From a phage: a DNA stretch of 64,000 nt. The DNA is taken from the sequence record PZ179880.1; one strand, given 5' to 3'. The notes under the pieces were generated by a model. That model ran no database searches. It saw only the letters and a list, made by a program, of their open reading frames with translations, and was not told where the DNA came from. A program made the position numbers and the translations under genes. This document shows, in pieces, positions 38,873-45,293 of the stretch (within the stretch, counting starts at the first letter, position 1; every line of letters starts with the position of its first letter).

Positions 38873-38948
38873 TGGTCGAGGCAGTAGGGATCGAACCTAC
38901 GACCTAGGACTTAGAAGGTCCTTGCTCTTCCTTCTGAGCTATGCCCCG
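38873..38948 (-). tRNA. tRNA-Arg (anticodon UCU), CCA encoded
   Basis: Manual cloverleaf: acceptor CGGGGCA/TGCCTCG, D-arm TAGCTCAG, anticodon loop CTTCTAA, T-loop GGTTCGATCC. Confidence 0.85.
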
Positions 38949-38951
38949 TAA

Positions 38952-39027
38952 TTGGGTGACCGATGGGAGTCGAACCCATGACTACGAGAATCACAATCTC
39001 GAGTTCTACCAACTGAACTACGGCCAC
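38952..39027 (-). tRNA. tRNA-His (anticodon GUG), discriminator C73, no encoded CCA
   Basis: Acceptor GTGGCCG/CGGTCAC, anticodon loop TTGTGAT, T-loop GGGTTCGACTCCC. Confidence 0.75.
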
Positions 39028-39120
39028 ATTAATACCTACTCCAACAATCAAGATGTCTTCACACGAAATTAAGAGAAGAGTGATCAGTTCAACCCCTATA
39101 ATCGCGTCAAGTAGGTATTA
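39028..39120 (-). ncRNA. Unassigned structured element inside the tRNA operon (not a tRNA)
   Basis: 11-bp perfectly complementary closing stem (TTAATACCTAC / GTAGGTATTAA) enclosing about 70 nt; no T-loop or D-loop. Confidence 0.3.
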
Positions 39121-39141
39121 ATGTGACAGTTGTCACAAATT

Positions 39142-39216
39142 TGGCGGACGTGATAGGATTCGAACCTATAACCAATCGCTTAACAGGCGATCGCTCTGCC
39201 ATTGAGCTACACATCC
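39142..39216 (-). tRNA. tRNA-Asn (anticodon GUU), CCA encoded
   Basis: Acceptor GGATGTG/CACGTCC, anticodon loop CTGTTAA, T-loop GGTTCGAATCC. Confidence 0.8.
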
Positions 39217-39220
39217 AAAT

Positions 39221-39307
39221 TGGTGGGGAGTGGTGGAGTCGAACCACCCGAGTCGCAATGACAATGGATTTACAGTCCACACCGCTACCTCTACGGGATA
39301 ACTCCCC
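39221..39307 (-). tRNA. tRNA-Tyr (anticodon GUA), class II with long variable arm, CCA encoded
   Basis: Acceptor GGGGAGT/ACTCCCC, anticodon loop CTGTAAA, variable arm about 15 nt, T-loop GGTTCGACTCC. Confidence 0.75.
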
Positions 39308-39317
39308 CAAATTAATT

Positions 39318-39392
39318 TGGTGGCCCTGGGTGGAATTGAACCACCATCTGGCGATTATGAGTCGCTTGCTTGAACCTTCCAGCTACAGGGCC
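39318..39392 (-). tRNA. tRNA with anticodon CAU; probably the Ile (AUA-reading, lysidine-type) species rather than Met
   Basis: Acceptor GGCCCTG/CAGGGCC with C4-G69 and C5-G68, anticodon stem-loop GCGACTCATAATCGC resembling bacterial tRNA-Ile2. Confidence 0.75.
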
Positions 39393-39393
39393 T

Positions 39394-39469
39394 TGGTGCT
39401 GATTGACGGAATCGAACCGCCGACCTTCTCATTACAAGTGAGTTGCTCTACCTACTGAGCTAAATCAGC
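39394..39469 (-). tRNA. tRNA-Thr (anticodon UGU)
   Basis: Acceptor GCTGATT/AATCAGC, D-arm TAGCTCAGTAGG, anticodon loop CTTGTAA. Confidence 0.85.
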
Positions 39470-39474
39470 AAAAC

Positions 39475-39564
39475 TGGCGGAGGCGATAGGATTTGAACCT
39501 ATGAGTCGCCGGAGCGACTGCCGGTTTTCAAGACCGGTGCATTAAACCACTCCGCCACGCCTCC
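39475..39564 (-). tRNA. tRNA-Ser (anticodon UGA), class II
   Basis: Acceptor GGAGGCG/CGCCTCC, anticodon arm CCGGTCTTGAAAACCGG, long variable arm. Confidence 0.85.
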
Positions 39565-39566
39565 AG

Positions 39567-39640
39567 TCTCCGTGGCAGGATTTGAACCTACGACATTCTG
39601 CTCCCAAAGCAGACGCTCTACCAAACTGAGCTACACGGAG
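39567..39640 (-). tRNA. tRNA-Pro (anticodon UGG), no encoded CCA
   Basis: Acceptor CTCCGTG/CACGGAG, anticodon loop TTTGGGA, T-loop GGTTCAAATCC. Confidence 0.85.
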
Positions 39641-39650
39641 TAAATTAAAT

Positions 39651-39724
<74 letters not shown>

Positions 39725-39728
39725 AAAT

Positions 39729-39816
39729 TTGGTGCGAGAAGTGGGACTCGAACCCACAAGGAAATCATTCCGCAGCATTTTAAGTGCTGTGCCTTTACCA
39801 ATTTGGCCATTCTCGC
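39729..39816 (-). tRNA. tRNA-Leu (anticodon UAA), class II
   Basis: Acceptor GCGAGAA/TTCTCGC, D-arm TGGCCAAATTGGTAAAGGC, anticodon loop CTTAAAA, long variable arm. Confidence 0.85.
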
Positions 39817-39817
39817 G

Positions 39818-39890
39818 CTGGGAATAAAGGACTCGAACCTTTGCATCCTGGAATCAAAATCCAGTGCCTTACCAACTTGGCTAATTCCCA
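39818..39890 (-). tRNA. tRNA-Gln (anticodon UUG), U1-A72 first pair, no encoded CCA; abuts tRNA-Leu
   Basis: Acceptor TGGGAAT/ATTCCCA, D-arm GCCAAGTTGGTAAGGC, anticodon loop TTTTGAT. Confidence 0.8.
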
Positions 39891-42685: not shown

Positions 42686-43216
42686 TTAAACTTCTGCTAT
42701 AATTTTGCCATCTTTTTCTACTTGAAAATACGTATAAGGAATCGTTGCTGTACATACTAAAGCTGGGTCTGAATCTTCAGTGTAGCTAAATTCTACTTCA
42801 GACAGGTCAGAAACCCAAGGCTTATAAAAATTTATTGACATCACGATTTCAGTTTTACTATTATCTAAAATGTAAAGCGTAATGTATTCAGGACCTGTTT
42901 TTTGGGCAGTATTTTCGCCTGTAAGATAGTTACTAGTTCCTAGCATCCATTCATACATTCCTATCCACGACTTAAGTTCTTCATCAACTATAAATCTCAC
43001 GATGAGTGGATCGTACTCAAATGTAACACCTGGACGTTGTGCTCGGCCCAGTCCAAACGGCCCAGTCACGGTATCAGTAACAGGTATCCTAATTCCTGGA
43101 ATAGGAACTGACTGAGCATTTAAAGTAAAAGCAGATGTAGTATTACTATGCGGTATTGATACTACAAAGTTAGTTGTATTTGCTTGGTTAAAAATTTGTT
43201 GTAGTGCTTGCGACAT
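42686..43216 (-). CDS. 3: Tail completion/sheath stabiliser gp3 (176 aa from MSQALQQIF)
   Basis: Gene order 1-3-2-4 and 176-aa length from the internal Met. Confidence 0.8.
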   Translation of the reverse strand: MSQALQQIFNQANTTNFVVSIPHSNTTSAFTLNAQSVPIPGIRIPVTDTVTGPFGLGRAQRPGVTFEYDPLIVRFIVDEELKSWIGMYEWMLGTSNYLTGENTAQKTGPEYITLYILDNSKTEIVMSINFYKPWVSDLSEVEFSYTEDSDPALVCTATIPYTYFQVEKDGKIIAEV

Positions 43217-43322
43217 ATATTCCTCATAATGCTTTATAAATGTTGGTGGTATAATGGGTCTAAGTCCCTTCCATTCAATTTCAATTAGAACAAACAATAG
43301 AAAAGAATGGAAGATAATAGAA

Positions 43323-43997
43323 TTAATTTATTAGACTTCTTAAACGAGCAGAAGTCATAAATGGAAATTTTTCTAAAGTTGGCTTTCGCCAATATCTTGG
43401 ATGACAAGTTGATTTAAAATCAAGAACAATTTTCTTTGCTTCATCAATAGTGCTAACTCCAAAGTTATCTAACATTATTTTCTTTTCTTTTTCCCACCGT
43501 TTATTAGCTAAAGCAGATTGAAGCTTTTTGTTTTTAAATGTATCATTTTTTCTAGAATGAGTTGTGCCTTGTGTCGGACTCCATCCTCTTCCTAAAATAA
43601 ATCCCTCAGGAATTATATCTCCATCATGCAATTTTATACATCTTTTACCATTATTATAATATTTTCGTCCAGTTTGTGTATTTGAAATATTATTTGCATG
43701 TTTTCTTTTTAACCAACCATAAACTTTATTATTTCTCCTAACATATTTAGTTGAAACCGTCATTTTTATGGCCGCATAAGATAATTTTAAAGAATTTGGG
43801 TGTATTTTTACTAATAGTTGATGTGCAACATAATGCTCTTCTGGAGTTAAATCAACCAAGTTAGAAGCATCATTACTACCGCCTAAACATTTCGGAATAA
43901 TATGATGTCTTTCTTTATATCCAGTAAGGGCTCTATTGCGAGCCCTATCAATTAGTGAATTATAAATTTTTTCATAATTCATCGTACATTGCTCCAA
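43323..43997 (-). CDS. HNH homing endonuclease (free-standing, about 220 aa)
   Basis: N-terminal HNH motif [31 protein letters not shown]; basic C-terminal DNA-binding region; inserted between genes 3 and 2. Confidence 0.75.
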
Positions 43998-44806
43998 ACT
44001 TTGTTTGCAGAGAAACGTTTTCCTTTGGAGTAGAAGCTTTGGAGTGGCATTAACACAACGTTCGCCCAGTCTTTCGGGGCGATTTCAACAAGGCTACCCA
44101 TGATATTACCAGGTATATATGCCTTAATCATTTGATCTGCACCCCTAAATCCTTTCACTTGACTCCAATCAATTTTTAATTTCGTTTTATTAGTAATAGT
44201 AGGTGTATTTGAATATTGCTTTAAAAGCTCTTCTAGAAACTGTTGACGAGCTTTAGGTGGAATATAGTGCAAGTTCAATCCATACATTAAATTATGTTTA
44301 CCTAAACCGAGGTAAATTATCAAAGGAAATTTATCCCAATAAGGAAGAGTTTCCTTGTGTTTAGCATCGTAAGCAAAAGCATATATTCGTCCCGGCTGCG
44401 GGCGAACAACTTTATGTCCTTTTACCTGCTTAATAGTTTCAGCAAACCACTTTCTGGTTTTATTATTAATTGCTGCACCTTCATTACGAATTTTATCACG
44501 CAACGTTTGCCTGAATGAATTTATCATAAGCAGTTGTCTTTCTTGCTTATTGAGTTTATTCATTGGTTTTGATTCAAGCTTTTGAATCTTTTCAGCTGTT
44601 TTAATTCCTGAAGCATATTTTGACATTGCCGAAGTAAACGTAGAATATTTAATTCCTTTTTCTTCAGCAAATTGCTTTCCTGTCATTCCTTTTGCTTTGG
44701 CCTTTTTGTATTCAAGACCTATCTGAATCCATTTCTTTTCGTTTAATGATTGCTTAACCTTTGGAACTTGGGGAGTGCTTTCATTAATTATTTGAAAAAT
44801 AGCCAT
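43979..44806 (-). CDS. 2: DNA end-protector protein gp2 (275 aa)
   Basis: Gene order and size; stop overlaps the gene 4 start. Confidence 0.85.
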
Positions 44807-45258
44807 TATGCCCCCTTAAAGCCAAGAGCTCGTAATCCATCTTCTGTTAAAATTCTAAATTTTATTCCACGCTTTTCAGCTAAAGATTGTGCTGCTTTCC
44901 ATTTGTCAGTATTAACGGAATATGTATAGATTTCATTCATAAATCTTTTCTTCGCTGCAGTTGTTAGATGTGCTGGTTTAACTGGTGGTTGTGTTTCTTT
45001 TTTAGGTTTTATTTCAATAAAAAATTCTTGTCCAGAAGAATCTTTCATCCAAATATCCATGAAGTATCTACGTTTTTTCCCTTCTGCATTACAAAAATAA
45101 GGAATTACTGCTGTTTCACTACCCCATGCAATAATTTCTGGATTTTTATCTAACCATTCAAAAAAGAATTTTTCCCAATTTGATCTATACGTAATTTTTT
45201 TAGGGTCACCTCTATATTTTGATATATTTTTAGGAACCCATTTTCCAGAATATGCCAT
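44806..45258 (-). CDS. 4: Head completion protein gp4 (150 aa)
   Basis: Gene order and size (150 aa). Confidence 0.85.
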
Positions 45259-45277: not shown

Positions 45278-45285
45278 GATAATAT

Positions 45286-45293
45286 ATTTATAA
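45286..45293 (-). promoter_or_regulatory. Late promoter TATAAATA (minus strand) for genes 4/2/3
   Basis: Reverse complement of tatttata gives TATAAATA about 28 nt upstream of the gene 4 start. Confidence 0.5.

Follow-up and report, generated by a model that had tools for sequence, protein, structure and literature searches.

A probable mob-type HNH homing endonuclease gene behind gene 2 of T4-like phages and a candidate target site at the end of gene 2

The closest described counterparts of the gene analysed here have been found in other T4-like phages. RB32ORF146c (ABI94970.1) and its orthologues in RB33, HY03, vB_EcoM_112, fPS-2, CAM-21, SF2-1, and further phages represent the same gene at the same position as the homing endonuclease gene (HEG) in the window, by which we mean the whole 64,000-nt stretch of phage DNA that was analysed (PZ179880.1). 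Over the stretch from gene 3 to gene 2, the window and the RB32ORF146c group share 97-99% nucleotide identity, with values of 97.7-98.9% for RB32, HY03, SF2-1, and others, and are distinguished by a few point differences. Records of this group name the gene either 'putative site-specific intron-like DNA endonuclease; similar to mobB; not conserved from T4 position', as in RB32, or 'homing endonuclease'. The class to which the window HEG belongs is well known, nothing sets the HEG apart within it, and it is already known from annotation. RB32 contains two mob-like HNH genes (Petrov et al. 2010, PMC2993671). In the literature searched, no functional study of RB32ORF146c or its orthologues was found.

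The T4 enzymes MobB and MobE are free-standing like the window HEG and also combine a homologous N-terminal HNH domain with a distinct C-terminal region, but the C-terminal halves are unrelated to that of the window protein. The sites differ as well, because mobB is found at alpha-gt/alpha-gt.2 and mobE at nrdB/nrdA, whereas the window HEG occupies the 2/3 junction. In addition, mobB has its own promoter (Edgell et al. 2010, PMC2988022), whereas none was detected for the window HEG. Few of the T4 mob endonucleases have been characterised; only MobE is counted as active among them, and nicking has been reported for MobA and MobE (Edgell et al. 2010, PMC2988022). The closest paralogues with respect to the N-terminus, from the other Tequatroviruses UFV-AREG1 (P0025), UFV09, and G4498, are 69-77% identical over the first ~95-110 residues. 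They have I-HmuI NUMOD-like, NUMOD1, or NUMOD3 C-termini and are located at other loci (near 32 kb), whereas the window HEG does not contain these modules. The genes for SegF, SegG, and MobE, which are known for intronless homing, resemble the window HEG in being free-standing beside the presumed target gene. The likeness extends to a carrier allele that differs in a short patch by the insertion, the concept including co-conversion of the flanks (Edgell et al. 2010, PMC2988022). However, cleavage and immunity are experimental findings for SegF, SegG, and MobE, whereas for the window HEG we infer both from polymorphism.

The gene, its start codon, and its protein

Judged from its sequence, the window HEG is probably an intact mob-type HNH homing endonuclease gene at the gene 2 site, and it would be expected to encode an active endonuclease and to home. 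It belongs to a block of Tequatrovirus late genes, in which genes 53 and 5 come next on the opposite strand:

42686..43216, minus strand: gene 3, tail completion/sheath stabiliser, the downstream neighbour (PHROG 45; Pfam PF06841, Phage_T4_gp19)
43217..43322, minus strand: 106-nt spacer before gene 3, the right insertion boundary (unchanged in comparison with W143, T4, T2, T6, and others)
43323..43982, minus strand: HEG, orthologue of RB32ORF146c, 219 aa plus stop (ORF; PHROG 655, E 9e-59; nucleotide identity)
43979..43982, minus strand: ATGA, in which the TGA stop of gene 2 overlaps the ATG start of the HEG (read directly from the sequence)
43979..44806, minus strand: gene 2, encoding the DNA end protector gp2, host and presumed target gene (PHROG 429, E 4e-79; alignments)
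44806..45258, minus strand: gp4, head closure/completion, upstream of gene 2 (PHROG 218)

The initial annotation had described an ORF of about 220 aa with an N-terminal HNH motif and a basic C-terminal region, placed between genes 3 and 2, which it gave as adjacent in T4. The ORF listing and the charge of the C-terminal half agree with this description, and in T4 (NC_000866) the two genes are indeed neighbours with a spacer of 106 nt. The gp3 of the window has 176 aa starting with MSQALQQ, the same as in T4. The 19-nt overlap with the gene 2 stop given in the same annotation has to be corrected, however, because it applies only to a start at the TTG at 43997, which would give a protein of 224 aa. 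From the ATG at 43982 the protein has 219 aa and the overlap shrinks to 4 nt. This ATG (MNYEKIY...) is the likely start, since annotated relatives, the homologue alignment, and the overlap with the gene 2 stop in other lineages all agree on it. Every annotated relative (RB32, SF2-1, HY03, fPS-2, CAM-21) has a CDS of 660 nt from the ATG, and all aligned homologues except one, for which a longer N-terminus has been called, have M-N/D-Y at this position. The HEG abuts or overlaps the gene 2 stop in the other carrier lineages examined (n=8; for example P479, Konradin, L154, L155, and L157, as in the window), with the exception of L158, which has a short gap. A GGAG motif is present at 43992-43995, 9 nt 5' of the ATG at 43982.

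The protein can be divided into two parts:

43698..43982, minus strand: N-terminal HNH (His-Me finger) nuclease domain, residues 1-95 (invariant residues; profile; homology)
43821-43913, minus strand: HNH motif, residues 24-54 counted from the ATG (ORF translation)
43326..43697, minus strand: C-terminal basic half, residues 96-219 (25 K+R versus 11 D+E)

PHROGs assigns the protein to phrog_655, 'homing endonuclease'. Alignments of 29-34 homologues show no variation at residues H26, H27, N41, H50, and H54, and the catalytic His/Asn/His set, whose possible absence had been raised at the outset, is conserved. In the family profile, the HH..N..H pattern is in register with the HNH motifs of McrA (6ghc), a group II intron maturase (6me0), and Cas8-HNH. 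The Pfam HNH models cover the core motif only and stay below their gathering thresholds (HNH_5 with 17.8 bits at a cut-off of 27.5, and HNH with 16.5 bits at a cut-off of 21.4). Similarly, a PDB sequence search with the single protein returned nothing at E<=1, and with the family profile it returned the short HNH core alone. Residues 1-114 are about 45% identical to T4 mobB (E 1e-22) and RB6 mobE (E 1e-20) in tblastn searches of phage genomes, which places the N-terminal domain in the mob family. By tblastn, the protein matches five places in the T4 genome, and other mob paralogues were not found elsewhere in the window. The sole NCBIfam match, to IscB, is sub-threshold and was dismissed as meaningless. 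The AlphaFold (AF2) model has a pLDDT of 90.6 and contains the motif as a strand (24-27), a second strand (42-45), and a helix (47-60), followed by a β-hairpin, a low-confidence linker (residues ~131-150), and a helical C-terminal domain; apart from the linker, these parts are modelled with confidence.

The C-terminal half is presumed to be the DNA-binding and specificity domain. Residues 95-219 have no match in Pfam even at E<=10, including NUMOD1, NUMOD3, and I-HmuI NUMOD-like modules, which are matched by the paralogues P0025 and P0065, and the C-terminal half of the AF2 model has no convincing structural match in the PDB. This half is common only to those homologues that are also placed after gene 2. 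Such a modular build is customary among homing endonucleases, and the window protein has a presumed specificity domain of its own.

The insertion and the recoded end of gene 2

A megablast search with the gene 3-gene 2 stretch identified the HEG in 37 of 514 Tequatrovirus-type records (~7%; the 514 include some GenBank/RefSeq duplicates), and the other records match both flanks only. The population analysis was based on GenBank records because IMG/VR scans added few Tequatroviruses. The HEG is absent from T4, T2, T6, RB18, ime09, HY01, fPS-65, and W143; together with the first four of these, ~465 other records lack it, and it is therefore not universally present at this position. The flanks are 95-99% identical across all records.

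Alignment of the 3/2 region with T4 and its relatives reveals a clean insertion, a precise 659-nt difference between carriers and HEG-less genomes with the 106-nt spacer unchanged. The HEG-less junction reads ...AAAGTCTGG TCAAATATCTAA TTCTATT..., and the carrier junction reads ...AAAGTTTGG AGCAATGTACGATGA, followed by the HEG and ...TAA TTCTATT.... The gp2 protein ends with KVWSNVR* in the window and the other carriers versus KVWSNI* in HEG-less phages. Without the HEG, the order and spacing would be precisely those of T4. Both neighbouring genes, 2 and 3, are intact, and the element is neither an intron nor an intein. The GC content of the HEG is 29.7% versus 32-37% in its neighbours. The initial interpretation as a free-standing HNH homing endonuclease insertion is thus well founded, given the homology to MobB, the invariant HNH residues, the precise polymorphism of 659 nt, and the decayed copies described below. 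An origin of the 3' end of the HEG from the old end of gene 2 was also considered and could be ruled out, because the C-terminal ...LIN/LIK* is conserved in the orthologues from other genera.

The carriers do not only differ by the insertion. Comparing nine carriers with 12 non-carriers across 2.6 kb uncovered a dense group of substitutions close to the end of gene 2:

44027..44042, minus strand: HEG-linked substitution cluster in gene 2, nine changes in 16 nt, LQQFVS to LQSFYS

The codons CTT CAG CAG TTC GTT TCA are replaced by CTC CAA AGC TTC TAC TCC in carriers, and a further linked change, C-to-T, is located at 43997. The patch corresponds to T4 coordinates 76106-76121. All or nearly all of the nine HEG+ genomes have the carrier-type base at these positions, whereas only one of the 12 HEG- genomes has it at eight of the nine cluster sites and none has it at the ninth. 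In the last ~100 nt of gene 2, the HEG+ and HEG- genomes diverge by 15-20%, versus 1-5% elsewhere, and outside these ~100 nt the divergence between the groups equals that within the groups. The same codons are affected in Serratia phage SP1, which carries the HEG and has QSFQS in place of QQFVS, with seven of 12 nucleotides changed in comparison with the HEG-less L011 and L015. None of nine carrier lineages has retained QQFVS; among the seven HEG-less lineages in which the motif can be recognised, four have. The assignment of a target site to these codons is indirect, and the pattern has exceptions: in P479, L060, L154, and L155 the HEG is present with only a V-to-F or V-to-M replacement, and QQFMS is also seen in HEG-less phages.

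The patch is a candidate for an immunised target site, or it could have been co-converted from the donor. Because of the dense recoding of gene 2 in carriers and because the same codons are changed in the Serratia carrier, the target is predicted to be located at the 3' end of HEG-less gene 2. More specifically, we tentatively propose a target in the PLQQFVS codons together with immunity of the carriers, a proposal that is less certain than the identity of the gene and has a chance of about even or slightly less. A short-query search suggests ~450 T4-type records, ~38 records with the HEG, and ~15 records with the cluster but without the HEG. The latter are of the F26 type, comprising phage vB_Eco_F26 (L145, 1703-1790) and ~14 others, which combine the QSFYS recoding with a T4-type end of gene 2. 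The F26-type alleles could be resistant, could be products of HEG loss, or could represent the ancestral haplotype. Given that ~15 HEG-less records have the cluster, it may have existed as a haplotype beforehand or may have stayed behind after HEG loss.

A different function of the cluster would be translational control, if it were an element sequestering the HEG's ribosome-binding site and not a matter of target-site immunity. In the window, the patch contains a direct repeat, ACTCCAAAG-cttct-ACTCCAAAG (44023-44045, minus strand). Each ACTCCAAAG holds CUCCAAA, which is complementary to the UUUGGAG of the Shine-Dalgarno region of the HEG, and the minimum-energy fold pairs the two (z = -2.3). 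Similar complementarity is found in SP1 (CUUCCAG/CUGGAAG, p = 0.02) and, by inspection of the predicted fold, in Konradin. For mobE, a ribosome-binding-site hairpin has been described in work cited by Edgell et al. (2010, PMC2988022). However, the comparison of the duplex with shuffled sequences gives p = 0.17 for the window and is not significant in six of the seven other lineages, the GGAG stays predicted as paired even with the T4 sequence put back in place of the cluster, and the HEG-less phages of the F26 type have the cluster without a Shine-Dalgarno partner. Control of translation is therefore an unlikely explanation of the cluster, or an unlikely additional role of it, and the recoding of a target site in gene 2 is the reading that we follow below.

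Relatives in other genera, diversity, and decay

Full-length homologues with 46-63% identity are located directly after gene 2 in eight of the eight examined from other lineages. Homologues placed in this way are found in Gaprivervirus P479, Acinetobacter phage Konradin, Serratia phage SP1, and four metagenomic contigs. In one contig the HEG follows gene 2 even though the next gene is gp4-like and not gene 3. Judged by this placement, it is gene 2 and not gene 3 with which the HEG family is associated, and the window HEG probably belongs to a clade occupying this one site across Straboviridae. The insertion in SP1 is equally precise when compared with the HEG-less L011 and L015. In addition, P479 (L005, 1033-1680) and Konradin (L006, 1018-1668) have a second, seg-like gene between gene 4 and gene 2, which matches GIY-YIG and NUMOD3, so that gene 2 is bracketed by two different endonuclease genes in these phages.

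The pairwise identity of the HEG proteins tracks that of gp2 with r = 0.93 (eight lineages). The association of the HEG with gene 2 is therefore old and essentially vertical between genera, and the co-divergence of HEG and gp2 gives no sign of a recent transfer between genera. It is conceivable, but on balance somewhat doubtful, that the family represents a distinct mob clade dedicated to gene 2, with an uncharacterised type of C-terminal DNA-binding domain, which has co-diverged with its host gene across Tevenvirinae and Twarogvirinae and would recognise or cleave the PLQQFVS site. Carriers of different genera would then have recoded the same two codons of this site independently (Q to S, V to Y/Q) and so avoided cutting themselves, and the F26-type alleles would be resistant.

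Within Tequatrovirus, the HEG sequences of the nine carriers have a nucleotide diversity of 0.0072, two to four times lower than the 0.016-0.028 of genes 4, 2, 3, and 1 in these genomes, and polymorphisms in the downstream spacer segregate in carriers and non-carriers alike. Thus, the HEG is younger than its backgrounds and is present on more than one of them. These data bear on the alternative that the HEG has been an ancestral resident after gene 2, predating the Straboviridae genera, and that its patchy distribution reflects repeated deletion and not ongoing homing. The strong correlation of HEG and gp2 identities would be expected under such a history, deleted and frameshifted copies exist, and the F26-type alleles with the linked cluster could be products of loss. 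However, the diversity of an old, vertically inherited gene that is being lost should not fall below that of its flanks, and the low diversity of the HEG in Tequatrovirus therefore counts against it, as do the several different flanking haplotypes that carry the HEG and the uniform, scar-free HEG-less junctions in ~450 records. Taken together, ancestral residence with repeated deletion is improbable, and ongoing homing within Tequatrovirus remains the preferred reading.

Decayed copies fit the homing cycle. Shigella phage CT01 (L002, OK018184) has retained a remnant of 174 nt, or 57 aa, at 2138-2311, in which an in-frame internal deletion of 486 nt has removed the HNH motif and the carrier-type flanks have been kept. 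FL23 and FL44 contain frameshifted copies. In Salmonella phage Manna (L151, PP987310), the last codons of the HEG, corresponding to the region 43323-43340 of the window, have been swapped for a T4-type end of gene 2 (…AGTCAAATATCTAA), with loss of the stop codon; in the record, one ORF of 1296 nt (701-1996) is annotated, reaching from the HEG through gene 3. Either recombination at a short microhomology or a sequencing error may account for this end.

Such clearly defective copies in several relatives raise the question of whether the window copy might itself be decaying, its ORF being intact by chance and its nuclease activity gone, as in T4 I-TevIII. According to Edgell et al. (2010, PMC2988022), moreover, activity has been demonstrated for only a minority of the T4 mob genes. 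However, the window protein has its full length and contains every invariant catalytic residue; its identity is 100% with the EC.W14-2 protein and 99% with the sequence representing a cluster of 137 members. Moreover, the family is conserved over its whole length including the C-terminal half down to 46% identity, which implies purifying selection on the HEG. An inactive copy in the window is accordingly very unlikely, and we treat it as a putatively active gene in the following.

Expression, proposed homing, and its consequences

Only one consensus element was identified that would be able to drive the genes 4-2-HEG-3:

45285..45292, minus strand: T4 late-promoter consensus TATAAATA upstream of gene 4

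Neither a consensus late nor a MotA-type middle promoter is present on the minus strand inside gene 2 or the HEG. A promoter or terminator belonging to the HEG itself was not found, and the counts of sigma-70-like and terminator-like sequences are at the level of shuffled sequences. Because the sole consensus promoter is the late one before gene 4, late expression of the HEG and coupling to gene 2 are to be expected.

From the comparisons described so far we infer nuclease activity, the position of the target, immunity, the timing of expression, and homing with biased inheritance, and these would be connected in the following way. The HEG would be transcribed late within the 4-2-HEG-3 message, and its translation would be coupled to that of gene 2 via the ATGA overlap. 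In a mixed infection, the basic C-terminal domain might then bind DNA and the HNH domain might nick or cut the gene 2 allele in the genome of a co-infecting, HEG-less Tequatrovirus at a target including the PLQQFVS codons (T4 76106-76121), ~45-60 nt from the insertion point. Recombinational repair off the carrier genome would copy the 659-nt HEG together with the adjoining recoded patch. The carrier itself would be spared because its patch differs at nine positions within 16 nt.

It is very improbable that the HEG persists chiefly for attacking co-infecting relatives (marker exclusion or interference) or for a function connected to gp2 and DNA ends, and is not purely selfish, because 93% of the Tequatrovirus records do without it and the sequence offers nothing to tell such a role apart from ordinary homing, although the expected translational coupling to the gene of a virion DNA-end protein, the long-term occupation of the same site across genera, and a cleavage step identical to that of homing would agree with it.

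If homing proceeds as proposed, the gene 2/gene 3 junction is a probable hotspot of one-directional gene conversion in co-infections of T4-like phages. This bears on the stability of phage cocktails and on the reading of mosaicism in Tequatrovirus and is thus of some, if modest, practical use. The comparative data provide a predicted target (T4 76106-76121) and three natural classes of alleles for a mob enzyme that is so far uncharacterised. If the reading as a clade dedicated to gene 2 were true, target site and natural immune variants would be predictable from sequence alone. New in this analysis are the exact boundaries of the insertion, its frequency of ~7%, its constant position next to gene 2 in different genera, and the prediction of target and immune alleles.

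Two further observations concern the surroundings of the HEG in the window. Eleven tRNA genes (Arg, His, Asn, Tyr, Met/CAU, Thr, Ser, Pro, Gly, Leu, and Gln) are clustered at 38873-39890 on the minus strand, and T4 has eight tRNA genes. The window tRNA genes are so tightly spaced that no segB-like ORF fits between them. The gp4 encoded upstream of gene 2 matches the Pfam family Tn7_TnsA-like_N, which has an endonuclease fold, with an E-value of 3e-21, and this match agrees with the label 'head completion nuclease' in some records.
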